Part shown: positions 4,542-58,063 of the stretch, in pieces
Layout of the letters: each line of letters starts with the position of its first letter
Numbering within the stretch: the first letter of the stretch is position 1
From: Bdellovibrionales bacterium
Lineage (GTDB): Bacteria; Bdellovibrionota; Bdellovibrionia; Bdellovibrionales; UBA1609
Assembly (NCBI GenBank): GCA_027317865.1
Contig: DAHVQG010000004.1
Location: forward strand, 32,001 to 96,000
Direction of reading: 5' to 3'
Length of the DNA stretch: 64,000 bases
Position numbers and translations under genes: made by a program
Notes under the pieces: generated by a model
The model's database searches: none
What the model was told of the DNA's origin: nothing
Seen by the model: the letters and a program-made list of their open reading frames with translations, nothing else

Positions 4542-4551
4542 ATTGTTCAAA

Positions 4552-5976: not shown

Positions 5977-5990
5977 CCCAACTCCTTTCG

Positions 5991-8074: not shown

Positions 8075-8096
8075 ACCGCTATGTCCTTAGCACATT

Positions 8097-39053: not shown

Positions 39054-39080
39054 GAAATGCCAAACCGAAAAGGGGGGATT

Positions 39081-39779
39081 ATGAAAACATTAGTACTCGG
39101 GCTTTTACTCGCGTTAGCTTATCAGCCCTGCGCTCAAGCGCTACAGTTTCAATTAGCACCGCCGTGCGGACGACACGCGTCTGTTGGCGAAGTTTGTTCA
39201 CTGCCAATTCTTGCATTGCATCCGACGCAATTTACACTTGGGATGATCGAAGTCCGAGCCCGCGCAGCGCAATTCGAAAGAAAAAAACCGGCGAAATTCG
39301 CGAAATACATGAAAAAGCATAACGTACCGGTCGTCATCGGTCCGGACGGCGTCTTTTATATGACCGATCACCACCACTTGTCCCGCGCGCTATATGAAGA
39401 CGGCGTCCGAACAGTCAATGCGCAAGTGACACACGACTGGTCGAATTTGAACAGGGCGCAGTTTTGGTCCCGGATGGAGTCAACAAAGCAAGTTTATCTC
39501 TATGAAGATGGCCGCGGACCGCTTTCACCGAGCGAACTTCCGAATAACATCTTACAGTTAAAAAATGACTACTACCGCAGTTTAGCTTGGGCCGTGTGTT
39601 CCCAAACGAAAGCATTCAAAAAAGAAAAGGTCCTCTTTTTTAGTTTTTATTGGGCCAATTTTTTCAGAGCGCGCATACCGGATTCACTCGTTCGCAATCA
39701 TTTTGAACAGGCGGTACAGTTAGGCGCTCAATTAGCACGTTCACCAGCGGCAAAAGGAATGCCCGGCTATCGCGGCTAA
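39081..39779 (+). CDS. ParB/Srx-like (ParBc_2-type) protein with signal peptide
   Basis: MKTLVLGLLLALAYQPCAQA; LHPTQ, VPVVIGP, YMTDHHHLSRA, LKNDYYRSLAW, FYWANFFR. Confidence 0.78.
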   Translation: MKTLVLGLLLALAYQPCAQALQFQLAPPCGRHASVGEVCSLPILALHPTQFTLGMIEVRARAAQFERKKPAKFAKYMKKHNVPVVIGPDGVFYMTDHHHLSRALYEDGVRTVNAQVTHDWSNLNRAQFWSRMESTKQVYLYEDGRGPLSPSELPNNILQLKNDYYRSLAWAVCSQTKAFKKEKVLFFSFYWANFFRARIPDSLVRNHFEQAVQLGAQLARSPAAKGMPGYRG

Positions 39780-39792
39780 GATTTTCAAGCCA

Positions 39793-40878
39793 TCAGGGTT
39801 CAAAGCAAAACCAGCCACCGACGGGGAAATGGTCGGTGGCACCACTTCCGGTTACCGGGTCAAAAGCAAGCGGTTTGCCACTTGGCGAAATAAACTCGTG
39901 GTGCCGAAGCGGCCCAAAGCTCCCTTGCTGCAAATATTTTAAAAAGTTTTGCGAAACAATGATCTGATCAAAGACTTCCCAACGCTTGCCGGCTTCAAAA
40001 AAACAGGTGGCCCGCTCTTTGAGTAAGCTTTCGGCATAATCATCTATTGTTTGCTTGTTTGCGCCTGGGTGTGCGGCCTTAAAATCGGCCATCCGTTTTT
40101 TCAAATTGAATGACTCTTCCTCTAAGTTACGCAATTTCTCAGTCATGCTTAATCCAAGACCGGCTTTCATTTCCGGGCTGTCGGGTTCCGCATTGAAATC
40201 ACCCATAATGATAATATTCGCAATCGGATTTCGTGACAAAATTTGATCGGTGACTTTTTTTAAAAACCGCGCCGCTTGAAACCGCTGCAACGCCGACCAG
40301 TCACCCAGTTTTTTACTTGGCCAATGGTTTACAAAGACAATCAGCTCTTCATCGTTTGGTAACCTTAAATGATATTCGACGATGGGTCTGGTCAAAAGAC
40401 CGCCTGAAAATTCTTTGCGCCCAAACCGCTTACGTTGCCGCCATAACGGATCGTCTTCGCTCCAATAGATATGCGCAACGGGCCCCTTAAGCATTGGAAA
40501 CCGTGAAATTAGCCCCAAGTTATTGCCGCGATCGTCCGCCTGAGGAGCAACGCCGTGACTGGCAAGACCCGATTTTTTCATCAAAGGATGCCGTACAAGT
40601 TGTGTCAAAAAATCACCGTCAACTTCGACGACTGCCAATAAATCGGGCCCTTTGTTGTCGTTCATTGAAGAAACCAATTTGGCTACCGCTTCAACTTTTT
40701 TTATTTCACTCTGTTTGTTCGGAAGAAATTTCTTATCGTGAATCAATTTAAACGCGTTCATCGTCGCTAGAAGATGCCCGCAAGAATAATTTGCGGATTT
40801 CTGCCGAGTCACCCCAATCGCATATGCGGGAACAAAAAAAATCGCACCCGCAAGCAGCAGGCGTTTCAACTTAGTCAT
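39793..40878 (-). CDS. Exported endonuclease/exonuclease/phosphatase (EEP) family protein
   Basis: Signal peptide; LAVVEV, VNHWPSK, MGDFN, FDQIIVS, TDHFPV catalytic motifs; ATG 40878 overlaps the upstream stop. Confidence 0.88.
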   Translation of the reverse strand: MTKLKRLLLAGAIFFVPAYAIGVTRQKSANYSCGHLLATMNAFKLIHDKKFLPNKQSEIKKVEAVAKLVSSMNDNKGPDLLAVVEVDGDFLTQLVRHPLMKKSGLASHGVAPQADDRGNNLGLISRFPMLKGPVAHIYWSEDDPLWRQRKRFGRKEFSGGLLTRPIVEYHLRLPNDEELIVFVNHWPSKKLGDWSALQRFQAARFLKKVTDQILSRNPIANIIIMGDFNAEPDSPEMKAGLGLSMTEKLRNLEEESFNLKKRMADFKAAHPGANKQTIDDYAESLLKERATCFFEAGKRWEVFDQIIVSQNFLKYLQQGSFGPLRHHEFISPSGKPLAFDPVTGSGATDHFPVGGWFCFEP

Positions 40879-42379
40879 CGTAACCCGAAAGCAAATCATC
40901 GCAATTCAGCTCCAACTGAGCCGACATTTTTTCAAATAATTTACGCTCACCGCTATTTAACGAATTAAAAAGATATCGCCGCCCCAACGGGCTGGAGTCA
41001 ACCGCCCGCAAAAGGTTTTTAAAAAAATCACGATTATTCAGTAGCGATTGACCCTTAAATTTTTCACCTCGAAATATTCCGATCAATCGCTTGAAATTAT
41101 ATTCAGTGGCGGTGCCCCTTTCGGCCATCCCCAATAGATCCTTAAATAAATCAAGCGCTGTCATCGGGGGATAAAGGCTTTTTGAAATTCGTTTTTTCGC
41201 GACCTGCATATATATCGCCATCGAATCAGTTGAATAATCTTTACTTGAAGATGACGTTTCGTCCTTATTACGCCAGTGCGGCACTTCGCCCCAACCATCC
41301 GAAAAAGAGGAAAATAGTGTTCGCCTTTCTTTAAACAGATCGGGAGCGGGAACTTGATCTTTAGGTATAAAAGTCAACGATTCGGTTCGTTTAAGTGGAA
41401 ATTCATACCCAAGTTCCAGCGCCGCTTTCTTAACTAAATCGATAAAGGTTGGGTCTCTCACAATTTTCATCACGTCGAACATTTCGCCGAGAATAGTTTC
41501 ATGCGCGGATGGCACATCTGCCCCCGGCGTTGTGCTTACTCGGCCATCCGCCGTGCGATGAAACGGACCAAACATTTCATGCCATCCGGTGGTATATGTG
41601 AGCGATGACGTTACCTTAGGCAAATAAAACGGATGAACCGGGCCTTCGGTCGTTATGTGACTGCGCTCCGATTCTTTCAATTGTTCAATATTAAGCGATG
41701 GCCTAATCACGTTGCTTTCAGTGCCGCCGCTCATGCCTATGCCAACGAAATTAACGCGATCGTAAAGCTTCTTTAAATCGCCTCCTTGAAGCGAATAACT
41801 TTGGTAAGCGGCGCGAATCAACTGACGCGATTGACTCGTTGAACGCCAACTCGTTACATCAAAGACGACAAACGGATAATCGTCGTTCATCTTTTCGAAA
41901 CTCAGCCCATTGCTACGTAAAAAATCAAACAAAAGCTCTCTGTCGTTTTGTGACGACTCTGTTGTCGCATTATAATAGTGTGGAAAACTCGGCCCGCTGG
42001 CATCCAGGCGCCTCACGCGGTTCTGTTGACCGATTGATTGATAGAAACCATCAAGCAAATCGGTCAGAAGCGCAACGTCGCGCCCAAGTCCAAGATATGT
42101 CGCACCCGGAAAAGCTCTTTCCATTGACGCAATGATGATTGCCGCATTTTGCGGTGAAAGCGAAACACCGTTATAAAACGGATTTATTGACGGCCATGTA
42201 TTGATTCCATATTTTGCGTCCATCGCAGATACAAACTCGTTTACAGTCGGACGGTTTCTTTGCTCTAAAAGCATTTGAATTGAATCGGCCGACCTCACGT
42301 TCATGCCGGCGGCCCGGCGGCCGTTGAAAACGCCAACTGTAAAAACGCAAATAAACGCCAAGCTTATCCAATACTTCAT
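40871..42379 (-). CDS. Exported PRTase-like 'GRD' family protein, paralog 3
   Basis: Signal-like N-terminus; FPGATYLGLGRD, SIGQQNRVRRL, PFVVFD, LGYEFPLKR shared with 48785 and 53594; C-terminal NCDDLL. Confidence 0.6.
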   Translation of the reverse strand: MKYWISLAFICVFTVGVFNGRRAAGMNVRSADSIQMLLEQRNRPTVNEFVSAMDAKYGINTWPSINPFYNGVSLSPQNAAIIIASMERAFPGATYLGLGRDVALLTDLLDGFYQSIGQQNRVRRLDASGPSFPHYYNATTESSQNDRELLFDFLRSNGLSFEKMNDDYPFVVFDVTSWRSTSQSRQLIRAAYQSYSLQGGDLKKLYDRVNFVGIGMSGGTESNVIRPSLNIEQLKESERSHITTEGPVHPFYLPKVTSSLTYTTGWHEMFGPFHRTADGRVSTTPGADVPSAHETILGEMFDVMKIVRDPTFIDLVKKAALELGYEFPLKRTESLTFIPKDQVPAPDLFKERRTLFSSFSDGWGEVPHWRNKDETSSSSKDYSTDSMAIYMQVAKKRISKSLYPPMTALDLFKDLLGMAERGTATEYNFKRLIGIFRGEKFKGQSLLNNRDFFKNLLRAVDSSPLGRRYLFNSLNSGERKLFEKMSAQLELNCDDLLSGYDD

Positions 42380-44442
42380 ATACCTTCCAAATTCTCGTGA
42401 TCAATAAGCAAATCAGCGCAACTGTGATTTTCAAAAATATTTTTGTATTGTTTGTATAGCGTCTTCCGCGCATCGGGCTGCAATCGTTCGATAGCTTGCC
42501 GGAGTTGCTCGCGGTTAGGATGCAATTCCAAAAACTTTGCAAATGAAACTGCCACAAAATCCGACATACGCCGTTCATACTTCGGCGTCGGATCTTCTTG
42601 GTCGAACTGTATAAGCCTTACATATTCGCTTGGAGTACGGACATAAGCCCTCATGACCTTTTTCATGTATTCAATAAACGGGGGACCGTGGCGCACCAGC
42701 GTTTTCAGTTCGTTCAATTGGTCAAAGCCGGGATGGCTCGCCATGATTAAATCCAAATTGTCTACCACAATTTGGGCAATCTGAGGTTTATTGAGCGTTC
42801 GGACAACCATCATATTTTTCACATATGAAATAAATGTCTCAGGTGAAGTAAGCGCTTGGCTCCATTCGTAATTTGCCACAAGAGGTATCAGAAGCGCCGA
42901 ATACTTTTCTTTTCGTAAATCATTTTCATCATTGTCGAGATAGTCCTTAATATTCAAATATTCGCTTTCGTTTAACGTAGTGAAAAGATTGTACCGGCGA
43001 ATTACGTAGTCGATAAAATCCGGATCTGCATTCCGAGCAATCAGCGCCGTTAAATTTTCTCGCGAAATATTCAAAGTTTCTGGAATGAGACTTAAACTAT
43101 TCCGGTTATACACGCTGATGATTCCCGGCATAAGCACGCTAAAATCTTTATTTTGAACCGAACGGGGATTAACCTCAAAACCAACCCAAATTTCGCCCGG
43201 TTTTCGAACAGGCGTCTCAGATAAAATAATACCGGGAGGACCCCGCATTGGATTCGTTTTTTGGTCGGGCAGCAACAAGTTAGGAGCGTTGAGTTTACCC
43301 ATACGAAGACGCTCGAATGTTTCAAAGTCATAAATTTTCATATAGGCCGTTTTTATTCCAAGTTCGCCCGCTGTCGCACCCTGTACGCCGCCCAAAGAAA
43401 ACGCCGGCAATGGCTTTTGCTCCATTAACCATGCAAGCGAATCCGTATCACTGCGCGACCCAAACGTAGAAAGGTCTTTGCGCACACCCATTCTGTTTAA
43501 ATCAGCCCATGCGGCGTTTACGTCTAAGGCGTTGTTGATAAGCTTATTTGCGTTTTTTTCGATCCAGCGCAAAGCTCCGTGATATTGCGGATCTGTCTTA
43601 ATTTTTGAAAATGGTGCCGTTCGCAAGATCCTTTCAACAACTTTGAGGCTATTGCGATCGGGTTTAAGGCCATACTCAAATACTTTTATTAAAAACCTCA
43701 ATGCACTGATGACAACAGGATTGCCGGACGAAGATCGCGAAGTGGAATGATGAAGGCCGGTATTAAAATAGGTGATTTCTCCACGGGCGACGTCGTGAAA
43801 AAACAATCCTTCATCGCGGCGGAATTTTCTCAAATCTTGAATTCGTGATCGCTCACCCGTTGGGTCAGTAATCTCAATAAGGCCTGTGGATCCCGAGTCT
43901 GTATTTTGATTCTTAAAATCTTCATTGTTTAAAATGTCCGCCTTGAAACCGATGGAATACTGGAGCGGGCGCACTTCCCAAACCGAAATAGTTTTACCAC
44001 CCGTTGTCTTTTTGTAGGGGAATTTCATCTCAAGGTCATGCTGAAGTTCTTCCGCATATTGAGGTTTCGCGTCAACCACAATATCGATGTCCTGATTAAA
44101 ATGAAATATATTGACGATGCTAAAATCCAGCCGATCAGCGGAGAAGTCCCGCGAACCGAGTTCATATTGTTCCGCCCAACGGCAATAAACGGCAAAGGCC
44201 TCCGCCGCTCCACCAAAAAGATAAGCCCGTATGCCTCTTTTTTCCGCCCATTCCTTTATAAATTGAAACTCTTTTACACGGTCCAAATCAGTCTGGATTA
44301 GCTTTTCAAACTCGAGATACGATCCGTTTTGCCTCGAAATGGAAAGCATTTCGGGGGGATTTTCGTTCGCCGACGCGAACGAAGGCCCGCATATAAGTAC
44401 AAGTGCGAAAACTGGCAAAAGAAATAGATTTAAAACCTTCAT
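42376..44442 (-). CDS. Exported nucleotidyltransferase-like protein (CCA/poly(A) polymerase-like head)
   Basis: Signal peptide ...FASA; AYLFGGAA, QDIDIVVD, DFKNQNTDS, SALRFL; C-terminal SCADLL. Confidence 0.6.
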   Translation of the reverse strand: MKVLNLFLLPVFALVLICGPSFASANENPPEMLSISRQNGSYLEFEKLIQTDLDRVKEFQFIKEWAEKRGIRAYLFGGAAEAFAVYCRWAEQYELGSRDFSADRLDFSIVNIFHFNQDIDIVVDAKPQYAEELQHDLEMKFPYKKTTGGKTISVWEVRPLQYSIGFKADILNNEDFKNQNTDSGSTGLIEITDPTGERSRIQDLRKFRRDEGLFFHDVARGEITYFNTGLHHSTSRSSSGNPVVISALRFLIKVFEYGLKPDRNSLKVVERILRTAPFSKIKTDPQYHGALRWIEKNANKLINNALDVNAAWADLNRMGVRKDLSTFGSRSDTDSLAWLMEQKPLPAFSLGGVQGATAGELGIKTAYMKIYDFETFERLRMGKLNAPNLLLPDQKTNPMRGPPGIILSETPVRKPGEIWVGFEVNPRSVQNKDFSVLMPGIISVYNRNSLSLIPETLNISRENLTALIARNADPDFIDYVIRRYNLFTTLNESEYLNIKDYLDNDENDLRKEKYSALLIPLVANYEWSQALTSPETFISYVKNMMVVRTLNKPQIAQIVVDNLDLIMASHPGFDQLNELKTLVRHGPPFIEYMKKVMRAYVRTPSEYVRLIQFDQEDPTPKYERRMSDFVAVSFAKFLELHPNREQLRQAIERLQPDARKTLYKQYKNIFENHSCADLLIDHENLEGI

Positions 44443-44459
44443 CCTTTAATTCGCAACCT

Positions 44460-47400
44460 TCATTCCTCTTTTGTGTTTGCGCTAACGGGTTGACGTATCA
44501 TTTTCGATAATAGAGTTGCGCACGAAACCGGCTTTGCGTTTTTTGCGCGCGCCTGCCAATCTTCGTACGTCCGAACCGGCTGTTGTGCGCTCTTTAATTT
44601 TTCTTCAATTTTGTGTTCAAGATCCTGAGCTCGCGATTCGCTTATGTCCCCTTTACGCATCAGCTCGGCGACTATCGCGCGAACAAGCGGCCATTTTTCT
44701 TTAAGAACGGCGATCGCAATTTCATGAGCGCGCGAAATCATTTGGCTTTGCTTTTGTTCAAACAATTGCCTTTGTCGCGAAGTTGCAAGAATTGGATTGC
44801 CTTTTTTATCGACTTGAACTCCTACAAGGTCGGTATCCATTCCCCATGTGGTGAGATATTCGGTTGTTACATATCTCATCGATTTCAAATCGTTTTGCCA
44901 TCCAATGTCGGCAGGTAAGCCCGCAAGCTCTTGAGCCACTCGACCGCCCCAAGCTTTAACAAGAAATGCCATCGTCTTATCGTAGTTGAAATTCGTATCC
45001 GCCCCGGGGATCGGCTTGTAATGCGCGTAGCCTTTTGCCGTTATCATTTTGCCGGTGAAATCTTTGAGGCGAGAATAGCGGATCGTAATATAATTCAAGA
45101 TCTCATTGGTTAATTCGGGATCATTTAAAACCGCGTGGCCAGCTTCATGGTAAGCCACTGTCTCAGCGTGTTTACCTAGCGGAATTTCGACTTCGGGCGC
45201 GAATTCCGTAAAGTCTTTTTGTATATAATCGAGTTTTTTACCATCCTTGTACACTTCAACGCCGACTAGAACCTTACGCGGCTCCGATTTTTTCTGGCGG
45301 TACGGTTTATTCGTCAAATTATCTTGAACATCGAGTTTGAATACATACGAAGACAAATCGTGCCCGATGTCGCCAGTCTTCATCAGTGCGGCTCCAAGAA
45401 GCGCACCCAGCCGGTTATCAAGCGCATTTCGAACCGATCGGCCACCTGTATCCGGGGTAAAAAATGCTCGGGTAAAATTCTCAACAAATTTAGGGCCGTA
45501 TTCAACAATCAGGCCCACGTGCTGTTCTTGCAGTCTGCGAATTTGATTTTTAAGTTCCTTTTCTGTGACACCTTTCATTTCGGTGGAAAGAAGCGGTTTC
45601 GCCAGTATGACGTCGGCTAGGCGCCCGAGAAACGCTTCGGGAATCCCATTTTTCACAAGATTCGCGCGAATGATCTCTTTCTTATTATTTTCGTTGTACG
45701 CATCCATTCTCAATTTATCGGTACTGAGACTCGTGAAGAATTCCTGCAAATCGTTGCCGGTGAATTCAAAAATATGATTTCGAAGATCGTATGTTCGGCC
45801 TGTTGCTGTCGACGTCCATTTGCCTTCGTCTAAAATTTCGTAGAAGTATTGCTTAAGCAGCTCTTCTTTGCGTTTGATGTCACCCCCGCCCATGTTAGAA
45901 AATTCATCGAAAACAATCACCCCGCCGTTTGGAGTGTTCATGAGCGCTCGCTCGAATTTTCCGATTTTGTGAGAGTCGACGTACCCGGCCGGTGAATTGA
46001 ATACGTCGTTCAAACGGCCCTCGAAATTAACATTGCCGAGTGGAATGACTTCAACTCGATCGGGTGAACCAAAAAGCGCCTCCGCAATTGCGCGGCCCAA
46101 TTCCGTCTTACCGACGCCCGTTGGGCCCACAATGGCAAACGATACGGCGGTTTTTCGACCCACGTCCGCATATTTCGACAATACGGCATCCGCTGCGCTT
46201 CGAACCGCTTCGTCTTGCCCGATAATCCGCGTCTTCATTCGTTCGGGCATCGATTGGATTTTTTCTAAAATTTCTTTGTCTTGAAGAGGATTAAAAAATT
46301 TCTGCTCGGGAGCGGCAACATCCAGGCTCTCGCTGTTGGTCCCATTTGTTACGCTCAATTTCACATCGGATGAGTTTTCGTTTTTGACTAAACCGATTTT
46401 AACTGTCCCATCCCGAGGGATATCCCAGTGGGCGCGTGCCTCGCGAATGGCAACTTTAAGATACGAATCGACCTGTTTGGCAACTTGCCGGTAGCCGTCC
46501 GTAACCGAAAATCCGGTCAGCGCTAAATGTTCAACCACAGCCGGCGAGACGTCGAGATGGAGATGATATTCAAACTCCATTTCGTTTTGCAATTTTTCAG
46601 TTTCACGGCGGGCAACCTCAATCGCGCCTTCTCGTGAACCCGGGTTGGCAATCGCCCACTCGTCGATTCGGCCCAAAACTTCCGGAGGTAATTGAAATTT
46701 GTCTTCGCCATCCGTCTTTTCGCGAAACAGTGCCGCGACGTCTTTTGATTTAAAACCTGCAAGTCGGCGATCGATTTCAGCCTGACTCCACATCGTAATA
46801 TTGTCCGGAAAAACGAGCTTCGCTCCCCGATTACTCGTGAGGATAACGATGTGACGGTTTGCCCGGCGAACTTTGCCATCGCCGCATGTAATTTCACCTT
46901 TATCAAAAAACTCCATTAACCGCTTCCACACATCAGGATGCATTTTTTCGGCTTCATTAATTACGATCACGCCGCCCATCTTGCCGCGAGAGGGGTCATC
47001 AAGGTATTCGCACAAAATACCGGACCTCTTATCTGAAGTTACCGTGCCGTTCGGTGAACCCACCAAAGTATTCACCGACAAGTCGCCGGTCTGATAGGTA
47101 TTGCCGTCTATAATGAGCGCTCTTCTTTTTGAACCGAATACTTTTTCAGCCAACGTTTCGGCAATTAAAGTCTTGCCGGTACCGGTAGTCCCGATAATCG
47201 CCATGACTTGCGGGCGCCTCGGGGTTCCGATTAATAAATTACCGACGCGTTCGACAAGCTTGTGAACCAAAGATTTCTGTTCAACAACAACGGAATCGAT
47301 CTCTTTTTCTTTCTCAGCTAAATATTCTTGAAAAGCCTTACCGTCGTGAGGGTTCGCCGGCAGCCCCGTGATCTCTTTTGCGTAATCGTAGATTTCGCTA

Positions 47401-50401: not shown

Positions 50402-52158
50402 TCTTCAGCATCCATCGGTTCAAATTCATCTTTGGGGAATTCATGTCTGTCAGACCTTGGGTTCACCAATGATCTTTCAATCTCAACCTTCTTTTGGCTT
50501 TCTAGCTCTTCAACAACGGACGCGACCTTCTCGGCGCTATCGGCAACCAGTATGTGGCTCTTGATTTCTGGCGAAAGCGAACTGTTCGCTATAAATTTAA
50601 GTAAATACGAGTAGTACTTTGAATTTTGAATCACGACGTACGGGGGCCGCTTCGAGTATTGAATCGCCACGAGCGTCGCCGCGAGCTCGCGCATGGTTCC
50701 GTTACCGCCGGGCTCAATAATTACTAAATCACGATTGTTTACTAGCAACGGTATCCGTGAATGGTAATCAAGCGTCGGAATCGTGTGCGATTGAACTTCG
50801 CTTCTTGTATCCGTCTCGTAAGGCAGCGCTCCACGACCGACGCGGGGTATTCCAATTGAAGGTCCACCCGCATCGTAGGCCCCCATGTTTGCCGCGTACA
50901 TAACTCCACCAGCACCTCCGGTAACCACCGGAATGCCGCGGCTCCCGAACCAATATGCCGTTTGATACGTGTCGGGGGCGACTTCTTCGTCTAAACGGCT
51001 CGACCCGAAAACAGCGGCACCGCGAACGCCAGAAAGAACTCTTACACCTGAACGAGTAACGTCCACGTGCTCAAGAAGAGCAATGATTTCACCAAGACTC
51101 ATATTATTTGGCGAAATGCTAAATGCTTTTAGATTAACTGGATCTTTTACGGCCGGGAAAACCGAATACCGTACTGATTCCAAAACGCGAGTGGCGTTGA
51201 CGATTGCAGATATCGAGTTTGTGATGCCAAGCCGCCGGTAGGATATTCCAAAACCCCTTTTTTCAGATTCCAGTAGACTCGACCAATCGTGAAGGCGATT
51301 TTTTGTATTACCGTCGAGGTCGAGAACAAATCCCGCATCATTATTGAGGAGTGCGGCCATCCCTAACGTCGAGTCCGGGCTTACAATTGCCGGCAAGGCA
51401 TGTGAAACGACTTCAAGAAATGAATACGAATTATTGAAATGTAAAACAATGCCAGGACGGCCTCTTTCATTTCTTGCCCCGGCTTCGGGTAACATTGAAA
51501 TTCCGATGCCGCAGGGACCCGCCGCTCGAGCAATTATTTCCGCCGCTTTGTTGTCGGCATCGTAGATAATTGTATAGTTTTTTGCCACGAGCTGAGCGAC
51601 AAGCCGTTCGTACTTCGTGGCTTCGGTGTCTGTTGGCGCACGATCGGACGAACCAACGAGAACCGAAACCAGTTTCGAGCGCGGCAACCTGTACACTTCT
51701 AATATTTGTTTGTAGTCTTCAAAAAATCCTCTATCTTCGGGTACAGCCAACCGCTCTTTTAGAACCGGGATCAACGACAACCGGTTTTTTTCTTTTAATT
51801 CTTCGATCAACCCCTCGAGTTTTTTTATTTTAAATTTGAGGTCAGCTATCTTCTTTTTGACTTCCGCGCGTTTTTCCGGTGAACGGGCTGCTGGTGATTT
51901 TTCGGCGTATTCGAGGTAAAAACCCCAAAAATCGCTTGCATCACTTGACTCAAGTTTGTTTTTTAATGACCTAATCTCGCGTTCCATTTCGCGAAGTTTT
52001 TCTATTGCTTCGACGAGTTGCGGGCTGCGGTATTCGGCAAGTTTAAAGGCCTGGGCTTTTTCACCTTTTAAGACACGGTCGCAAGGCTGCCCGTAGGCGC
52101 TAGAAATCGCGAAGGTTGAAACCACAAAAGCGCATAAAAACAAGCGGCGCGAAATCAT
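50398..52158 (-). CDS. Exported tandem LOG/SLOG nucleotide phosphoribohydrolase
   Basis: AAVFGSS, VTGGAGGVM, SIGI, SRIPLL, PGGNGTMREL; preceding degenerate LOG copy; N-terminus SRRLFL...AYG. Confidence 0.82.
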   Translation of the reverse strand: MISRRLFLCAFVVSTFAISSAYGQPCDRVLKGEKAQAFKLAEYRSPQLVEAIEKLREMEREIRSLKNKLESSDASDFWGFYLEYAEKSPAARSPEKRAEVKKKIADLKFKIKKLEGLIEELKEKNRLSLIPVLKERLAVPEDRGFFEDYKQILEVYRLPRSKLVSVLVGSSDRAPTDTEATKYERLVAQLVAKNYTIIYDADNKAAEIIARAAGPCGIGISMLPEAGARNERGRPGIVLHFNNSYSFLEVVSHALPAIVSPDSTLGMAALLNNDAGFVLDLDGNTKNRLHDWSSLLESEKRGFGISYRRLGITNSISAIVNATRVLESVRYSVFPAVKDPVNLKAFSISPNNMSLGEIIALLEHVDVTRSGVRVLSGVRGAAVFGSSRLDEEVAPDTYQTAYWFGSRGIPVVTGGAGGVMYAANMGAYDAGGPSIGIPRVGRGALPYETDTRSEVQSHTIPTLDYHSRIPLLVNNRDLVIIEPGGNGTMRELAATLVAIQYSKRPPYVVIQNSKYYSYLLKFIANSSLSPEIKSHILVADSAEKVASVVEELESQKKVEIERSLVNPRSDRHEFPKDEFEPMDAEE

Positions 52159-53597
52159 TGAGAACCTTTCAGTATCGCCTGACAGTCGCCAGCGGATTTA
52201 TCATGTGGTTTAACAATAAGATCTTCGACAGCACGGCCGAGTTCCTCACCGATCGGGACAATGACGAGTTTGGAATTCTGTTTTACGACCGCATTTGATA
52301 CGGGATACGAATCCGTCACAACCAGTTGATCAATAGATGCACTATTGAGCGCTTTACCGCCGTCGCCCGCGAGGTGTGTAACGACCGCAATAACTTTAGT
52401 CGCCCCTGCTTTCTTCAAATAATCAGCCACGTCCGCTAATGTGCCCCCGGTTGACGTTTCATCGTCTACAATAGCGACAACTTTGCCCGCCGGGCTCGGT
52501 CCGCTGAATCCGTAAAATTTTGTTTGAGCAGTGAGTGGATCGCGCTGTTTATTGGCGACAGCAACAGGCAACTTCAGCATGTCCGCATAAAGCGTGGCAT
52601 CTTTTTGAAATCCCGTATCCGGTGAAACAATCATTTCAACATCGGCATTTCGCAAGTACGCGCACAATGTATTAAGGCCCAAAACATTAAAGCTCGGAAT
52701 ATCAAAAAAGCCCTGTGATTGCGGAGCGTGTGCCCGAGCAAATTCGATAGCCTCTGTGCCAACACTTTCAATTAAGTCGGCAATCAGACGGCCAATCACC
52801 GTTACACCTTTTTGATCCGCCTTATCCGATCGCGCCCACGGCAACGGCGTTACCCACGTTACGGCGGCTCCATCTCTTGTCATCTGCGCAACTCGCGCCA
52901 AGGCGGCAAAAAAGGTTTCACTTTTGGGGATTACGACTGGCCTCACAAAAATTATTTGCGCGCCCTTTACCGCTCCTCTCGGGAGAGAACCTGGATTATA
53001 AACCGGCAAATTCAGAACACGCCCCATATCGCGAGCAATCGAATCGTGGGAGTCTTGAAGAATAAAACTGTGTGTCAGATGATGCCTGCCGGGCCAAACA
53101 CGACGGATTCTAATGGTTCGCGGATGGTTCCCGTTTTCAACAAACTTGGTCGCACCCGCTATGCCGATAAGCGATTCCACCGGTAAGGCAAGCGAACCGT
53201 TTGCGGTCGTGACCCGTATTTTTGAAATCGAAGTATTAAGAAAAGCAACAATCTCTCGTGCACCGAGCGTTCTTGCCGTTCGAATCTTAATCAAAGCCTC
53301 CATAAACATTTGGGGCGTCATTTCATCTGGAATCAAAATCCCGACTCGTTTGCCAGTAAGATTGGTCTGCACGCGCACGAAAGTGTCGCCGTTAGAAAAC
53401 TCTTGAGTTTTTTCTTCAATCATCCGGCAGCCAGGGTGTGACGTGCAGAATCGATTAGCAGCTTCTGAAAAATTACGTACAGAGAATAGTAATACGCTTC
53501 GATTGCGGGCGCTGGCGTAACCCGAGCCGACGAGCATAAGGGTCGTCATGCTCAAAAATGCAATTTTATTTAAACCCAACCCTTTCATCGTCCTCAC
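52155..53597 (-). CDS. Exported ribose-phosphate pyrophosphokinase (PRPP synthetase)-like protein with duplicated N-domain
   Basis: FSNGD, PWARSDK, HAPQSQGFFDIP, VSPDTG, KQR, IVDDETSTGGTL; signal peptide ...YASA; C-terminal DCQAIL. Confidence 0.88.
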   Translation of the reverse strand: MRTMKGLGLNKIAFLSMTTLMLVGSGYASARNRSVLLFSVRNFSEAANRFCTSHPGCRMIEEKTQEFSNGDTFVRVQTNLTGKRVGILIPDEMTPQMFMEALIKIRTARTLGAREIVAFLNTSISKIRVTTANGSLALPVESLIGIAGATKFVENGNHPRTIRIRRVWPGRHHLTHSFILQDSHDSIARDMGRVLNLPVYNPGSLPRGAVKGAQIIFVRPVVIPKSETFFAALARVAQMTRDGAAVTWVTPLPWARSDKADQKGVTVIGRLIADLIESVGTEAIEFARAHAPQSQGFFDIPSFNVLGLNTLCAYLRNADVEMIVSPDTGFQKDATLYADMLKLPVAVANKQRDPLTAQTKFYGFSGPSPAGKVVAIVDDETSTGGTLADVADYLKKAGATKVIAVVTHLAGDGGKALNSASIDQLVVTDSYPVSNAVVKQNSKLVIVPIGEELGRAVEDLIVKPHDKSAGDCQAILKGSQ

Positions 53598-55198
53598 CCT
53601 GCAGGTTTCAAAACGTCACTACACGTGGCTTCTAACATTTTACTTAACCGCTCATATGCCTTCGATCCGAGCGGACCGGATTTATGTTCGTTATTTAAAA
53701 AATATTCCCTCTTTGAGTTCCAAACTTCTTCGAAGGTGCGGCTGTTATGGTAGAGATGCGCCAAGCCGCTTTCAAATTTCTCACGCTCGCTCACGGCCGC
53801 GCCATTAACCGTGTCTTCACTTGCAATTGGATAGTTCGCAAGTAAACGCTTGATTAGGCGGCGAAGATCGCGCGCGCTAATTTTGCCATTTTCAAATGCA
53901 TGTACCGAACCCGCTAAAAACATGAGCGCAATTTGACCCGAATTTTTGTCAGTGCGGCCGTAAACATCCGATTTCATAAGAGACAAAATCTTCATTCCGT
54001 TTTCAGTCATCGGTTCGGCATCTTCACCAACAGGGCCAAGCTCTGAAATTATATCTTTGAACGATCTCTGCGCTTCAGCTATACGCTGTTCGGCAATTTC
54101 GTCGGCCGTTAGCATTCGAATGTCCGTTCGTTCGCGCGCGCGCCCCTCTGGGAACTCATACCCCAGTTCTCTAGCCGCTTTTTGCACTTCACTATAAAAC
54201 TCTTTTGTCGAAACAATTCCTATGATGTCGTACAGACCACCTAAAATTGTTTGGCGTATTTCAACGCTGGACAGACCTCCAGGTGGAGCGAAAACGCGCC
54301 CGTCTTGCATGCGCTGAAGTTGAAGGAATGGGCCGTGCCACTCTGAGCTGTAAGCAAGTTGGGCGCCATCGATTTTCAAAATTCGATCAGGACCGGTTGG
54401 CTGAGCATTCGATGTTTTAATGTACTTTTCGATTTTTTTTACAGTTTCATAATTTTGCGATCCAATTATCGGGTAGTTCGAATTTTTTATGTCAATGACA
54501 TTGACCTTCATCAAAAGGTTCGTGAGCGGCTTTTGTGTGCCTTGGTACACACTATAAAACGCACCAATATATTGGCGGCTTTGGCTCGTAGGGCTGTAAC
54601 TGGTCGCATCGATAATAATAAACGGCGGGTCTTGATCCACAGACTGCAGATGAAGTCCGTTAGTCGCCAAAAAATCGACCAAAATATCGGGCGTGCTGCC
54701 AACCAAAGATTGCCCGCTTGCATTGAGCCGCACGACGCGATGGTTTTGCCCGTGAGCTCGGTAAAAAGCGTCGACCATATCGGCAATCAATGCGGAGTCG
54801 CGACCCAAAAACGCATACGTTCCGCCCGGGTAGGCCGCTTCAAGACTAGCAATAATTTTTGGCCCGTCAGCCTTGGTTACAGCCACGGCTTGCGAACGTT
54901 CACCGGCATTTCTAAAGGGATTTTTTCTTGGCCACGGCGTTAACGCATTTTCGATTTCGGCAATGGTCGGGCGAGATTGCATGTTAAGCAATTCATTGAT
55001 TTTTTCATCACGAGCCTTTTTAGCTAATTGCTCCTGAACTTGCGGTTCGCCCCCATCGCTCAAATTAGTTGTCGTTATAGTCCCAAAGGCTCCGTGCCAG
55101 GACGTCCGGCTATTCGCCGCACGAACCTTCGCCGACACCGAAGCTGCTACAATTAAACCGGCGATCAACATTGATAACGCCTTACCCATTTTCCCCAC
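53594..55198 (-). CDS. Exported PRTase-like 'GRD' family protein, paralog 1
   Basis: Signal peptide ...SVSA; YPGGTYAFLGRDS, RVVRLNAS, PFIIID, LGYEFP; C-terminal TCSDVL. Confidence 0.6.
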   Translation of the reverse strand: MGKMGKALSMLIAGLIVAASVSAKVRAANSRTSWHGAFGTITTTNLSDGGEPQVQEQLAKKARDEKINELLNMQSRPTIAEIENALTPWPRKNPFRNAGERSQAVAVTKADGPKIIASLEAAYPGGTYAFLGRDSALIADMVDAFYRAHGQNHRVVRLNASGQSLVGSTPDILVDFLATNGLHLQSVDQDPPFIIIDATSYSPTSQSRQYIGAFYSVYQGTQKPLTNLLMKVNVIDIKNSNYPIIGSQNYETVKKIEKYIKTSNAQPTGPDRILKIDGAQLAYSSEWHGPFLQLQRMQDGRVFAPPGGLSSVEIRQTILGGLYDIIGIVSTKEFYSEVQKAARELGYEFPEGRARERTDIRMLTADEIAEQRIAEAQRSFKDIISELGPVGEDAEPMTENGMKILSLMKSDVYGRTDKNSGQIALMFLAGSVHAFENGKISARDLRRLIKRLLANYPIASEDTVNGAAVSEREKFESGLAHLYHNSRTFEEVWNSKREYFLNNEHKSGPLGSKAYERLSKMLEATCSDVLKPAG

Positions 55199-55201
55199 TG
55201 G

Positions 55202-57613
55202 TTATTCCCTCAACCTTTCAGTTTTAACGCTTTTCGCGCCGTTATCTAAATATTTCGTATTTATATCACTTAACGCATTTCGAATGTCGTCCGCCGAATT
55301 CACCAAATATATCCTCGACAAAACCGATGCTGGTAACTTCGATTCTTTAAGATAGTTGGCAAGCGATCCGTAGAAATCGTTGGCCACAAAAATGATGCTT
55401 TGGCTCTTATTGAGGCCCGATGCGAAATTGACAAAAGCTGTCGCCAGTTCTTGAAGCGTCCCCTTACCGCCCGGCATGACCACGACAACGTTGTTCATAT
55501 AGAGCAACAACGGGATACGCGTTCGATAGTCAGTCGTTGATAAGGTCAGATTATGGACATCTGTCGCTGCCGATTTTTCACGCCATAGACTGCCACTCTC
55601 AAGCGGAATACCGATCGAAATGCCACCCGAGTTTATGGCGGCATCGTTGGCAATTCTCATAAACCCGTCCGCTCCACCAGTCGCAATGGCCAAACCGCTT
55701 TGCGCGATGGTTTTCGAGATGCTGTAAACCATCGAATCATATTTTGACTCTCGGGTACTTGAACCGAAAACGACCGCGCCCCCGGGAGTTTTTTGGCGTA
55801 ACGCCTGAACGGCTTCGGTCATTTCACGCTGATAATTCGAAATTTGTGAAAGTTGGTGGCGATCTAATTTCGCGATAAATTGGCCGTCATTTAATCGAAC
55901 CGGTTCCGTTTCTGCGAAGACAATTCCCGGCGTATCGCTATATTTTTCATAATCACTATATTTGCTATATTTTGATTTTTTACCGCGAAGACTTTCAATC
56001 GCTTCGTTGTTTGTTTTAAATTTTTGGATGCTAAGAAAGTGGTAATTGTCTCGAATCCCAAACGAGTAACCGTCAATGTTGTCAGTCCATTTGCGTAAGC
56101 CACCTAAGATGGGAAAATCAGAATTGTTGATAGTGCCGTCAATGTCCTTTTGAAGAAGCAATCCAAACCCGGTGACCGAGTCAGCCGTCATGATTCGATT
56201 GTTCGAATATGCAAACGCCTTCATTCTTAGGTACGGATTGGGTATCGATAAAATCTGGCTATTGTGGAGCATTGTTTCCGAACCGGCGGTCACTTCGCTC
56301 GTAATACCGACTCCACGGTCACCGACGGCTTCTGCGATAAGCGGCGCTGTCGGCACGTCGGCATCAAAAAAAACTATATAACCGTTCTTCGCCGCCGATC
56401 GAGCCAGCTCCACCGCTTCATTGGCATCGGCGTTGTTTGCGGCGCCCGTCAGAAGTGTCAGAGTTTTTGAAGTTCCGTCGCAGATAGCTTGCACCCAACG
56501 ATAATTCAGCATTTCACGGAGGTAGCCGCTATTTGCGTTTTCTTGTTTCAGTGCCGATATAAAATTGGCTTGAAGTTCGGCCGTCTGCTTTAACTCTCGT
56601 TCACGTTCCGCAATAAGCCGTTTTCGCTCGTTTTCTCTTTGTTTGGCGGCTATCTCTTCGTAATTTTCTTGAAGTTCGCTCAATGCGACTCCCTTCGGAT
56701 AATCGCTCTCTTTTAGAAATTTGAAATTCCAGTCAGCGGTACGCACGAGACGCGGCTTACCGTCATCGTCGAAAAATGAAACCACGTAGTCAGAGTTAAT
56801 TAATGAATCCCTTGCCCGGCCATAAACCAATGCGATCCGTTTCGACTTCGTCTTTATGCCTGAAACGGATGAGCCCGTAACCGGATCACGAAAGAACGAA
56901 TTTGAACTCAATACAGCAGCAGCCACTGCATGTTCCGGCTTTAATCCCTCGGTTTTGCGAATCACGGTGTTGATTGCCAACAACTCCTTCGTCGGAGATT
57001 CAACTTTTGTCGACGGAATCGGCACTTCCGCGGCAGCTAGCGATTCTGTTTTATTTTCTAAAGCATTGAGTTTCGGCGATTCTCGTCGTAACAATACCGA
57101 CGCCGCGACCAACGTCGAGTGGCCTTTGATTCGTGAAAATTCCGTTCCGTGTCTTTTAAAAGCAGAATCGTTGTAAAACTCTAATTCTTCTGGTTCAACC
57201 CAAGCGATTCGACGGCCATGAGTTGTCCATCCAGAAATTGCGACGGATGTTCCGCCTAACTTAAAATCATTGTTTTTAACCCCATAGACATAAATATCGT
57301 TCAACGGCGAAAGCACGACGTTACCGCTTAAGGCAATTGGCGAGGTCAATTTGGCGAGAGCGATCGGTTTCGTTTCGGCACTAACCTCAGCTATGTCCGT
57401 TGTGAGTGCTTTGATCGCTTTTTTAAAAGTCGGCTCTGTGGTATTTGTCCCACGCAGAATCAATTCGCAAACTGTAGACTTCTTTTCACTTTTCCCATTT
57501 TTCTTTGTGGCCGCGTGGGCCGAATTAAAGCTGAACAATATCAACAATGAAACAAGCAAAAGGGCTTGAGAATTACAGTCGTGAGACTTGAGCTTTAATG
57601 GCGCCCCCTTCAT
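55202..57613 (-). CDS. Exported tandem LOG/SLOG protein with extra N-terminal region
   Basis: Signal peptide ...SAHA; AVVFGSS, ATGGADGFM, SIGI, TRIPLL, PGGKGTLQEL; degenerate first LOG copy; RBS-like AAGGTGAGGGG upstream. Confidence 0.82.
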   Translation of the reverse strand: MKGAPLKLKSHDCNSQALLLVSLLILFSFNSAHAATKKNGKSEKKSTVCELILRGTNTTEPTFKKAIKALTTDIAEVSAETKPIALAKLTSPIALSGNVVLSPLNDIYVYGVKNNDFKLGGTSVAISGWTTHGRRIAWVEPEELEFYNDSAFKRHGTEFSRIKGHSTLVAASVLLRRESPKLNALENKTESLAAAEVPIPSTKVESPTKELLAINTVIRKTEGLKPEHAVAAAVLSSNSFFRDPVTGSSVSGIKTKSKRIALVYGRARDSLINSDYVVSFFDDDGKPRLVRTADWNFKFLKESDYPKGVALSELQENYEEIAAKQRENERKRLIAERERELKQTAELQANFISALKQENANSGYLREMLNYRWVQAICDGTSKTLTLLTGAANNADANEAVELARSAAKNGYIVFFDADVPTAPLIAEAVGDRGVGITSEVTAGSETMLHNSQILSIPNPYLRMKAFAYSNNRIMTADSVTGFGLLLQKDIDGTINNSDFPILGGLRKWTDNIDGYSFGIRDNYHFLSIQKFKTNNEAIESLRGKKSKYSKYSDYEKYSDTPGIVFAETEPVRLNDGQFIAKLDRHQLSQISNYQREMTEAVQALRQKTPGGAVVFGSSTRESKYDSMVYSISKTIAQSGLAIATGGADGFMRIANDAAINSGGISIGIPLESGSLWREKSAATDVHNLTLSTTDYRTRIPLLLYMNNVVVVMPGGKGTLQELATAFVNFASGLNKSQSIIFVANDFYGSLANYLKESKLPASVLSRIYLVNSADDIRNALSDINTKYLDNGAKSVKTERLRE

Positions 57614-57986: not shown

Positions 57987-58063
57987 TGGCGTCCCCGGCA
58001 AGAATTGAACTTGCGGCCTGCAGTTTAGGAAACTGCTGCTCTATCCGGCTGAGCTACGGGGAC
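57987..58063 (-). tRNA. tRNA-Arg (anticodon CCT)
   Basis: GTCCCCGTAGCTCAGCCGGATAGAGCAGCAGTTTCCTAAACTGCAGGCCGCAAGTTCAATTCTTGCCGGGGACGCCA folds as a cloverleaf, anticodon CCT, encoded CCA. Confidence 0.96.

Follow-up and report, generated by a model that had tools for sequence, protein, structure and literature searches.

The window analysed here, 64,000 nucleotides from an uncultured Bdellovibrionales bacterium, contains a nine-gene operon that we interpret, on balance, as an exported O-phosphoribosylation kit, most likely at work inside an attacked cell. A predatory lifestyle of the source genome is inferred from its order. The chemistry would be carried out by a PRPP synthetase (PRS), three GRD proteins of predicted gPRT/CriT fold and two LOG proteins. 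As a first-pass annotation of the sequence had described, the nine ORFs are co-oriented and coupled, all on the minus strand, with intergenic distances from LOG-1 to EEP of 3, -4, -4, -4, -28, 17, -4 and -29 nt. Its labels for the LOG proteins, PRS, AAA-M41 (three AAA modules plus M41) and EEP agree with Pfam, that of the NTase agrees with its fold (class II, CCA-adding type), and the three GRD proteins are indeed paralogues of one another. The features are as follows.

57987..58063, minus strand: tRNA-Arg(cct).
55202..57613, minus strand: LOG-1, 803 aa; signal-like N terminus, Cys motif at C49; first half SLOG-like but degenerate, second half a C-terminal LOG domain that carries PGGKGTLQE and the catalytic Arg.
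53594..55198, minus strand: gPRT-1 (GRD-1), 534 aa; signal-like N terminus, Cys motif at C526; predicted gPRT/CriT-fold domain at ~96-347, then helical C-terminal domain; residues G132-R133-D134, R154, S161, D197, Q206, W287.
52155..53597, minus strand: exported-type PRPP synthetase, 480 aa; signal-like N terminus, duplicated N-terminal domain, Cys motif at C472.
50398..52158, minus strand: LOG-2, 586 aa; signal-like N terminus, Cys motif at C26; two-half build as in LOG-1; catalytic residues R468 and PGGNGTMRE (E491).
48785..50401, minus strand: gPRT-2 (GRD-2), 538 aa; signal-like N terminus, IGRD...VDTVS core, Cys motif at C531.
44460..48812, minus strand: AAA-M41, 1450 aa; signal-like N terminus, three Clp-type AAA modules, M41 with HEAGH, Cys motif at C1431.
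42376..44442, minus strand: class II (CCA-adding/poly(A) polymerase-type) nucleotidyltransferase (NTase), 688 aa; signal-like N terminus, GG, D118-x-D120, Cys motif at C675.
40871..42379, minus strand: gPRT-3 (GRD-3), 502 aa; signal-like N terminus, LGRD...FDVTS core, Cys motif at C493.
39793..40899, minus strand: EEP nuclease/phosphatase, 368 aa; signal-like N terminus, Cys motif at C40, catalytic motifs intact.

The operon lies in a stretch of ~21 kb on the 3' side of the tRNA-Arg(cct) that is near-empty in two genomes of the same genus. Upstream of it, no sigma-70-type promoter was found, and our own sigma-54 and sigma-28 patterns gave none that was convincing. PADLOC returned partial matches at the domain level only (PsyrA, ShosT and AAA models), with no match for GRD, NTase or EEP. 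The annotation knew of no described system with this make-up; we likewise found neither the system nor the Cys-x3-hydrophobic motif of its products in the literature searched, which covered few subscription journals.

The PRTase fold proposed for the GRD proteins is borne out by a predicted structure of GRD-1 (pLDDT 87.9), the one paralogue of the three that was modelled. Among 48,161 chains, the first match to this model is CriT of Bcs3 (Z 11.3, rmsd 3.9, 197 residues aligned) and the second 7SHG (Z 10.5, rmsd 4.1, 202 aligned), covering model residues 96-345 at 8-9% identity; Foldseek by itself placed 7SHG at rank 19 with a non-significant E-value of 0.08. Sequence searches were blank: GRD belongs to no Pfam, NCBIfam, PHROG or PADLOC family, a sequence profile found no solved relative, 30 long members of the family carry no informative Pfam fusion, and a single-protein scan of genome contigs with GRD-1 gave no match. 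Across 122 sequences, conserved positions include D134 (99%), D197 (100%), R154 (99%) and R157 (83%), the aspartates following strands 1 and 3 of the model and the arginines lying around strand 2. CriT has a split acidic pair, D680 in loop 1 and E818 in loop 3 (PMC10299916, available portion), and, judged by strand order, D134/D197 would be placed in the same way. The family is large, with 357 clusters at 50% identity, and its loci, which in metagenomes were reached through PRS only, carry two to six divergent paralogues with variable C-terminal domains and kinase fusions.

PRPP for such enzymes could be supplied within the operon. The PRS scores 152 bits with TIGR01251 (cut-off 113) and has the ATP-binding loop, catalytic Lys/Arg and R5P loop of two-domain PRS; aligned to human PRPS2, it keeps R256/D258, H290, D327, K350/R352 and D378/D379. 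R288 replaces human D128, the Asp of the DLH motif; of the 18 long PRS checked, 17 have Arg at this position and one has Lys. The same change occurs in long PRS beside NAD-salvage enzymes, where the expected product is PRPP. No long-PRS relative was confirmed among 44 pattern matches in viral contigs.

Comparison with ribofuranosyltransferases that pair a glycan phosphoribosyltransferase with a HAD phosphatase (gPRT-PRP; 7SHG of Thermobacillus composti; CriT/CrpP of H. influenzae Bcs3, 8A0C and 8A0M) brings out both likeness and difference. Enzymes of this kind transfer Ribf-5-P from PRPP to the hydroxyl of a glycan. The predicted catalytic fold over ~200 residues (Z 10.5-11.3) is shared, the placing of conserved acidic residues on two loops apart from each other may be so too, and a sister cassette to ours couples gPRT with HAD phosphatases as they do. 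GRD proteins differ in their signal-like N termini, Cys motif, several paralogues and kinase fusions, and here a dedicated exported-type PRS is present, with LOG instead of HAD in the window's genome. Moreover, gPRT-PRP is cytoplasmic and encoded in a polysaccharide-synthesis locus, whereas the operon has no glycan-synthesis gene.

These comparisons bear on an unlikely alternative, extracytoplasmic glycan ribosylation, in which the kit would act in the periplasm or in the lumen of the bdelloplast and, using ATP and nucleotides leaked from dying prey, decorate either the predator's own surface glycan or the wall or LPS of the prey. Sec on its own delivers to the periplasm only, and a loop of PRS and LOG would require ATP alone. 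All gPRTs characterised in the literature covered act on glycans, and the sister cassette is a classic gPRT and HAD pair. B. bacteriovorus, for its part, alters prey walls and has reported uptake of ATP and NMP (PMC13689555, available portion). However, no glycosyltransferase, flippase or sugar-nucleotide gene is present in the operon or was recognised in the related cassettes examined, the described extracytoplasmic pentofuranose route has lipid-linked donors, and the same tag is carried by a CCA-type NTase, RelA/SpoT-like proteins and an NAD synthase, whose substrates are cytoplasmic.

In the LOG proteins, PGGxGTxxE and the catalytic Arg are found in 14 of 15 copies, including both in the window, and the best solved matches are TT1465 (1WEK, E 1.5e-21) and Cg1261 (5WQ3, E 1.2e-12). 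Compared with type II LOGs, the closest solved relatives, the catalytic Arg, Glu and PGGxGT loop are retained; the window proteins differ in having roughly double the length, a first half that is degenerate, a signal-like N terminus and the Cys motif. Both adenine-binding positions are also replaced, that of Cg1261 Lys156 by I/V and that of Asp177 by K/R/Q, in all 14 motif-bearing copies. Type II LOGs split AMP into adenine and R5P, and Asp177Ala almost abolished AMP hydrolysis by Cg1261 (PMC5379747, available portion).

LOG also alternates with a HAD phosphatase. Among the nine genomes of the order with exported-type PRS, six have LOG, three have HAD and none has both; overall, LOG occurs without HAD in eight genomes and HAD without LOG in three, and relatives of the type B HAD, the one HAD family searched for, were found neither in the window's genome by tblastn nor in seven other LOG-type genomes. 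The phosphatase is a separate gene in three genomes and one further locus. This split matches two gPRT clades and may reflect a single event, two of the three HAD genomes belonging to one genus. The replaced residues and the alternation make it doubtful that LOG releases R5P from NMPs, as had been proposed; its remodelled base pocket suggests instead that it may erase a phosphoribose mark.

The annotation had named nucleotide harvesting or depletion as a possible outcome, and we rate this below glycan ribosylation: PRS, gPRT and LOG would run as a futile cycle at the expense of prey ATP, or would turn prey nucleotides into bases and ribose phosphates for uptake, the acceptor being incidental. 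Writing and erasing do sum to ATP -> AMP + PPi, the AMP-splitting type II LOGs are the nearest solved relatives, and an ITPase-PRTase fusion adjoins related exported PRS in three of the loci scanned. A drain, however, has no need for two to six divergent gPRT paralogues per locus, drawn from a family of 357 clusters whose C-terminal domains vary and which includes kinase fusions; the adenine pocket of LOG is altered, and the NAD cassette found next to this PRS type is an anabolic one.

Two sequence features suggest export of the kit. All nine products begin, as had been noted, with a signal-peptide-like sequence; by our own heuristic, each has among its first 30 residues a 10-residue window of hydrophobic character (mean 2.0-3.35). 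In related loci this heuristic called signals in 21 of 23 long PRS, 22 of 23 GRD, 12 of 14 LOG, 14 of 16 AAA-M41 and 8 of 8 NTase proteins, and in 142 of 152 GRD-family proteins from protein sets, against 6 of 72 ordinary PRS; it is loose, a variant permitting alternative starts flagging 808 of 2037 genome ORFs. The window's genome has a separate ordinary PRS without a signal.

The second feature, absent from the annotation, is a Cys-x3-hydrophobic motif in 9/9 operon products. In six it lies 8-20 residues from the C terminus without a TM helix, and in three it follows a hydrophobic segment and polar spacer. Its fifth residue tracks the genome and not the protein family (147/205 vs 141/797 pairs; permutation p 1e-4), and thus behaves as a sorting signal would; GC content does not account for this flavour, the residues Y, L and I going with GC values of 0.50, 0.48 and 0.49, respectively. 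Genome-wide, the C-terminal form is enriched in signal-class ORFs (27/641 vs 7/963; mid-protein control 4/641) and the N-terminal form barely so (16/641 vs 16/963); the strict filter used regained just four of the nine operon proteins, so its 43 matches are neither complete nor clean. C40 of EEP abuts the first strand and is possibly structural, and some GRD relatives lack the motif.

Known short Cys motifs common to unrelated exported proteins are built differently: the lipobox has its Cys at +1 of the mature chain, and in the MYXO-CTERM type a TM helix and basic tail follow. Here neither lies behind the motif, which occupies either end of the mature protein, and NCBIfam models for such signals gave no match among the operon proteins. 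Two further AAA ATPases and one RelA/SpoT-like protein were tagged among 36 proteins of the window's genome that were scanned. These, like the tagged NAD-salvage enzymes beside exported PRS, act on cytoplasmic substrates, which we count in favour of our reading.

It is very unlikely that the N termini stay uncleaved and serve as anchors or targeting segments, keeping the enzymes on the cytoplasmic side of the bacterium's own membrane: the ATP paradox would disappear and the heuristic does over-call, but the hydrophobic segments are short, in many cases end in an A-x-A-like site and occur on unrelated families, the genome keeps its own unsignalled PRS, and the C-terminal motif is enriched in signal-class ORFs.

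The clusters of export-tagged PRS, LOG and GRD that the annotation led one to expect do occur in distant genomes. Among 384 genomes of the order, long PRS is found in nine and GRD in eight, with an overlap of seven; the remaining two long-PRS genomes carry divergent gPRTs, so that an exported-type gPRT accompanies all nine. The cassette is rare (~2% of the order; 0/6 genomes of the same genus) and therefore not core to predation. AAA-M41 and NTase form a commoner module, present in 48 of the 384, and at E<=1e-60 no other cassette genome of the order has it. In 8 of the 14 loci examined, AAA-M41 has as its partner an NTase-ART-like protein that bears a signal, and the two modules adjoin in the window's genome, one other genome and one further locus. 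No EEP relative was found in the other PRS/GRD loci examined; EEP probably travels with NTase. The operon thus joins a PRS/gPRT/LOG module to AAA-M41 and NTase (with EEP) at a tRNA-Arg island, and is not a nine-step pathway.

Within this second module, AAA-M41 has an intact Walker A in all three AAA modules and NE in the second Walker B. It shares AAA modules and HExxH with ClpA/ClpB and FtsH (M41), and differs as a soluble three-AAA and M41 fusion with a signal-like N terminus. The NTase has the head and neck of class II CCA-adding enzymes and poly(A) polymerases, a class that works on 3' ends of tRNA or RNA, with GG and DxD (Foldseek E 3.8e-6; VIA Z 10.9); unlike them, it bears a signal, is paired with AAA-M41 and has a second, weakly ART-like domain that has lost that family's His and Tyr. 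We dropped, as the core function, a tag-and-degrade partnership of gPRT with AAA-M41, given the absence of AAA-M41 from the order's other cassette genomes at E<=1e-60. Some helical and membrane proteins encoded next to other cassettes could be parts of a translocon; they had no tblastn match in the window's genome and so are not a required delivery module. Of the findings that would have told against the first-pass annotation, namely signals unsupported for most genes, no co-occurrence in other genomes, and GRD without a PRTase fold while PRS and LOG are inactive, none was encountered; PRS and LOG retain their main catalytic residues and are predicted to be active. Its single pathway is not supported, and its LOG step is doubtful.

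In two loci, a fully export-tagged NAPRTase-NadD-PncA and NAD synthase pathway stands beside the same PRS type. Phage NARP1-3 are NAD reconstitution pathways (PMC13464706); on the available portion of that source, they too are small PRS- or PRTase-based pathways run by an invader inside its victim, and NAPRTase-NadD-PncA with NadE and PRS looks like the predator's counterpart. The differences are that proteins appear to be exported here, rather than genes expressed in the host, and that gPRTs, but no NAD enzymes, are found in the cassette of the window.

Returning to the O-phosphoribosylation kit, we infer from sequence the export of the nine proteins, their destination and their acceptor. Sec would carry each protein over the inner membrane, and a lineage-specific machine may then read the Cys-x3-hydrophobic motif and route it to a compartment with ATP, in all likelihood the cytoplasm of the prey; the analysis turned up no path by which a protein in the predator's periplasm would get there. 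Since PRPP chemistry needs ATP, it probably runs inside the attacked cell. There, PRS would make PRPP from ATP and R5P, and the three gPRT paralogues may put 5-phosphoribose on hydroxyl groups, their variable helical domains selecting different acceptors. Precedent speaks most for a sugar hydroxyl, on a glycan or an RNA ribose; the kinase fusions suggest protein Ser/Thr/Tyr. LOG would then hydrolyse a phosphoribosyl bond. It is an even call whether it takes off the gPRT mark, so recycling R5P, in the slot of the sister cassette's HAD phosphatase; somewhat less probable is that it splits NMPs, including AMP from PRS, so that ATP alone would give PRPP and adenine. AAA-M41, NTase and EEP would not be needed for this chemistry.

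More tentatively, and as a proposal more likely wrong than right, Bdellovibrionota may move ATP-dependent pathways to the prey cytoplasm along a Sec-dependent route, not described before, in which a genome-tuned Cys-x3-hydrophobic tag is read, the operon being an O-phosphoribosylation writer (gPRT, from PRPP) and eraser (LOG) acting on prey protein or RNA, while sister cassettes rebuild prey NAD. The cargo would then include multi-enzyme synthetic pathways, not hydrolases alone; were the enzymes to stay periplasmic, a pathway that depends on ATP would be a surprise in that compartment. The GRD family extends the predicted gPRT fold to a large, uncharacterised group outside glycan synthesis. 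For the question of how predatory Bdellovibrionota gain access to the prey cytoplasm and control it, this locus offers a candidate sorting tag amenable to mutation and a list of candidate cargo.

The nine open reading frames that the first-pass annotation had placed at 39793..57613 are indeed found there on the minus strand, in the order LOG-1, GRD-1, PRS, LOG-2, GRD-2, AAA-M41, NTase, GRD-3 and EEP, and the translational coupling it described was borne out by gaps of 3, -4, -4, -4, -28, 17, -4 and -29 nt. Its labels also agree with Pfam for the two LOG/SLOG proteins (phosphoribohydrolase-type), the PRPP synthetase (PRS), whose N-terminal domain is duplicated, the three-AAA plus M41 protein (AAA-M41) and the EEP enzyme (nuclease/phosphatase). 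Pfam returned no informative family for the three GRD paralogues or for the class II nucleotidyltransferase (NTase). The operon lies on the 3' side of tRNA-Arg(cct). From this tRNA to the gene matching window positions 36246-36743, the distance is about 1.5 kb at most in two same-genus genomes and about 21 kb in the present genome (G000), while a third same-genus genome has a different insert at the tRNA-Arg site, AAA-M41 gene included; because spacing and insert content differ in this way, the stretch is a variable island.

Features of the island and its surroundings (window positions)
39057-39779, plus strand: ParBc_2 nuclease-like gene, within the same island and convergent with the last operon gene; its product has a signal-like start
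39793..57613, minus strand: the nine-gene operon
58089-64000, minus strand: immediately upstream of the tRNA and island, genes for a sigma-54 response regulator, a sensor kinase and type IV pilus components (pilR, pilS, pilC, pilT and pilB named by sequence reading, the family scan covering the regulator alone)

A 14-sequence profile defines a GRD family of 357 clusters at 50% identity. An AlphaFold model of GRD-1, built from 122 sequences, reached a pLDDT of 87.9. Foldseek gave nothing significant with this model, yet the glycan phosphoribosyltransferase (gPRT) structure 7SHG, at rank 19 (E 0.08), had the top listed probability, 0.66. VIA-align against 48,161 chains placed first the CriT domain of Bcs3 (residues 639-936; Z 11.3, rmsd 3.9, 197 aligned) and second the ribofuranosyl transferase 7SHG (Z 10.5, rmsd 4.1, 202 aligned), both covering model residues 96-345; the next row (Z 7.7) fell on the helical part of GRD-1. 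A second structural search agrees, so that gPRT/CriT-domain structures top both structural ranks and the phosphoribosyltransferase-type fold proposed for GRD holds for the GRD-1 model. Conservation is 98-100% at G132, R133, D134, R154, S161, D197, Q206 and W287. CriT relies on D680 and E818, in separate loops, plus R708 (PMC10299916), a split-loop layout with which D134 and D197 are compatible as candidate counterparts. Known gPRTs use PRPP to place Ribf-5-P on the hydroxyl of a sugar, after which a HAD domain strips the phosphate; according to PMC11127046 and PMC11231755 their operation is necessarily cytoplasmic. Whereas these enzymes have a HAD partner and a cytoplasmic glycan locus, GRD proteins fail both defining features; for this reason we do not file them as ribofuranosyltransferases, though they are probably gPRT-like in their working. 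ESM Atlas structure rows for GRD-1 included HAD-fused proteins (TM about 0.5). Rows for window 53594-55198 held proteins of 270-330 aa that are common in Actinomycetota (TM 0.65), and one of 926 aa from Saccharimonadota. Fold sharing in the ESM Atlas suggests that gPRT-like stand-alone proteins may exist outside glycan loci.

The signal-bearing form of PRS (long PRS) occurs in 9 of the 384 Bdellovibrionales genomes, spread over four families, and GRD profile matches in 8; seven genomes have both, against 0.19 expected by simple arithmetic. Since the remaining two long-PRS genomes, G115 and G118, carry divergent gPRT members (FLARDG...VDSG motifs), all nine hold a gPRT. In G345 (80% complete) a gPRT is present and long PRS was not found. 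Full-length PRS matches, six among the 80 loci kept, include Bdellovibrionales, Pseudobdellovibrionaceae, Oligoflexia and Bacteriovoracaceae. Clusters of PRS, LOG and GRD, the synteny that the first-pass annotation proposed to look for, recur in other genomes as type A loci: PRS, one to three LOGs and at least two gPRTs. Some of these loci also carry kinase fusions, HipA-like kinases or RelA/SpoT-like proteins. Type B loci combine PRS with divergent gPRTs and HAD phosphatases of the NIF type; two of them also have BtpA.

Distribution of cassette types
Type A (with LOG), within the order: genomes G000, G025, G048, G170, G226, G246
Type A, outside the order: genomes G390, G487; metagenome contig L150
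Type B (with HAD phosphatase): genomes G343, G115, G118; locus L147

Searches of all 8 type A genomes found no type B HAD, and the LOG profile had zero matches among the 3 type B genomes. This LOG/HAD split parallels two gPRT clades and may stem from a single event. In G343 the type B cassette (L025:8954-18102 and L026:2291-10294) encodes PRS and BtpA together with six gPRT-like proteins and four HAD phosphatases, and almost every one of them is tagged. Several cassettes adjoin helical proteins of about 220 aa with a Cys-Val tail and large hydrophobic-helix proteins (L020:1453-2103 and 4350-8246, L019:199-855, L147:3-2110, L007:11667-16923), possible delivery parts that had no match in G000.

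AAA-M41 and NTase, probably with EEP, make up a second module. AAA-M41 relatives occur in 48 of the 384 genomes, and at E<=1e-60 none was found in the order's other cassette genomes. In the 14 loci read, every AAA-M41 protein has HExxH and a Cys in its last 25 residues, and an NTase relative is adjacent in eight. The operon NTase model (pLDDT 88.9) matches CCA-adding enzymes (Foldseek E 3.8e-6; Z 10.9); its downstream domain resembles ART/PARP weakly (Z 3.6-4.7), with the ART/PARP-type His and Tyr kept in about half of 19 relatives and absent from the window copy. In loci L181-L188 an exported-type AAA-M41 is paired with a class II NTase as a two-gene module; the NTase carries an ART-like domain that retains His and GxGFY. 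Several of these NTases end in a domain presumably resembling FGE-sulfatase. In L183 and L184 an identical nine residues serve as the AAA C-terminal and the NTase N-terminal motif. For EEP and for NTase alike, the four nearest relatives come from contigs of the same four lengths, which suggests that they are neighbours. A type A cassette is joined to NTase and AAA-M41 in G487 and to AAA-M41 in L150; the joining of the two modules is thus recurrent and optional, and the first-pass view of the nine genes as one pathway is not supported.

Operon PRS passes TIGR01251 and, aligned to human PRPS2, keeps the ATP loop, H290, D327, K350/R352 and D378/D379; of the 18 long PRS checked, 17 have Arg in place of the DLH-motif Asp. 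Exported-type LOGs have type II LOGs as closest relatives. Type II LOGs break AMP down into adenine plus ribose-5-phosphate (R5P) via Arg155 and Glu178 and bind adenine by Lys156 and Asp177, Asp177Ala almost abolishing activity (PMC5379747). The catalytic Arg and PGGxGTxxE are kept in 14 of 15 exported-type LOGs; at the adenine-binding positions every one of these 14 has I/V and K/R/Q, so the leaving group may be other than adenine. The altered pocket and the LOG/HAD alternation make LOG slightly more likely to be an eraser of a gPRT mark than a supplier of R5P. Should LOG accept AMP, PRS itself would provide it and the nuclease would be unnecessary.

All nine operon products contain C-x-x-x-hydrophobic, 8-20 residues from the C terminus in six and shortly after the signal in both LOGs and EEP; in EEP it adjoins the first strand and may have a structural role. 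A Cys lies among the last 25 residues of 137 of 152 GRD-family proteins (312-1925 aa). Eleven members with signal-like starts have zero cysteines (P0047, P0054, P0055, P0064, P0069, P0090, P0111, P0131, P0136, P0145, P0148), and some lineages may accordingly export a GRD enzyme without the motif. A matrix derived from GRD-family tails matched C termini of 27/641 signal-class ORFs of G000 against 7/963 cytoplasmic-class ones, and 4/641 mid-protein control windows of the signal class; the N-terminal form was hardly enriched (16/641 against 16/963). Among the 36 motif-list proteins of G000 scanned, the majority without family, are C1B and S51 peptidases, GH15 and, on other contigs with signal-like starts, a RelA/SpoT-like protein (L030:1049-2590), a second AAA-M41 (L036:60-3551) and another AAA ATPase (L043:30-3317). 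In 80 motif instances, hand-picked among cassette genes in 12 genomes or contigs, the +4 residue was identical in 147/205 same-genome, different-family pairs against 141/797 same-family, different-genome pairs; within-family shuffling gave a mean of 48.9 (p 1e-4, related genomes not being independent). GC content does not account for the pattern. A genome-specific +4 residue would be expected if a host-encoded machine read the motif.

Gene set, folds, residue conservation, co-occurrence and the genome-specific motif are established. From them we infer that the operon proteins would be exported by Sec, the Cys motif directing onward sorting, and would work in prey cytoplasm, where PRS would synthesise PRPP, gPRT-fold GRD proteins would O-phosphoribosylate acceptors and LOG would erase the mark or supply R5P. 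That the kit performs a specific modification inside prey is the reading we somewhat favour. B. bacteriovorus reportedly secretes enzymes toward prey cytoplasm via Sec, the predator being compartmentalised from it (PMC2797640), and modifies prey walls (PMC13689555); the passages available from both name no translocation route. Ribosylation of glycans, in the periplasm or in the bdelloplast lumen, is a distinctly less probable account. Nucleotide drain or harvest is rather unlikely. The components are members of known folds or function like them, and the whole matches no system found; the literature searched, including PMC12419801, PMC12622784 and bioRxiv 10.1101/2025.06.06.658234, with subscription journals and supplements (secretome tables) largely outside its scope, does not describe it.

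Export was called by a hydropathy heuristic on N termini. It was positive in the fetched loci for 21/23 long PRS (one of the 23 being an ordinary PRS with a wrong start), 22/23 GRD, 12/14 LOG, 14/16 AAA-M41 and 8/8 NTase proteins, and in the protein sets for 142/152 GRD-family members, three of the 152 being nearly identical to window proteins. With alternative starts it flagged 808/2037 ORFs, an over-calling that makes the paired comparison with ordinary PRS (6/72 flagged) the useful control; G000 also encodes an ordinary PRS elsewhere. That the proteins are not exported at all is very doubtful.

The same PRS stands beside other export-tagged pathways. At two loci, in G407 and L072, its gene comes after those for a NAPRTase-NadD-nicotinamidase fusion and a NAD synthase of the glutamine-dependent type. 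Every product has a signal-like start and a Cys tail, and judged by gene content the set is a complete NAD salvage route. In G560, L152 and L154 a PRS form without Cys tail adjoins a signal-bearing ITPase (YjjX)-PRTase fusion.

Other loci with signal-bearing or exported-type PRS
L170:7401-16136 (G407) and L072:2906-9614: NAD salvage, a metallophosphoesterase close by in both; L170 also has an aldehyde dehydrogenase and a zeta-toxin-like kinase
L172:15664-18229 (G560), L152:7993-10576 and L154:6999-9606: signal-bearing PRS with ITPase-PRTase
L151:406-6469 and L070:6387-11281: exported-type PRS with tagged acetyl-CoA hydrolase/transferase and alpha/beta hydrolase; 1002 aa PRS fusion with tagged aldehyde dehydrogenase

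The NAD-salvage and ITPase-PRTase contexts support PRPP as the probable product of long PRS. The NAD cassette is similar in logic to phage NAD reconstitution, as outlined in PMC13464706. Taken at the level of predicted proteins, these loci show the recurrence, within the phylum, of ATP-dependent pathways with export tags.
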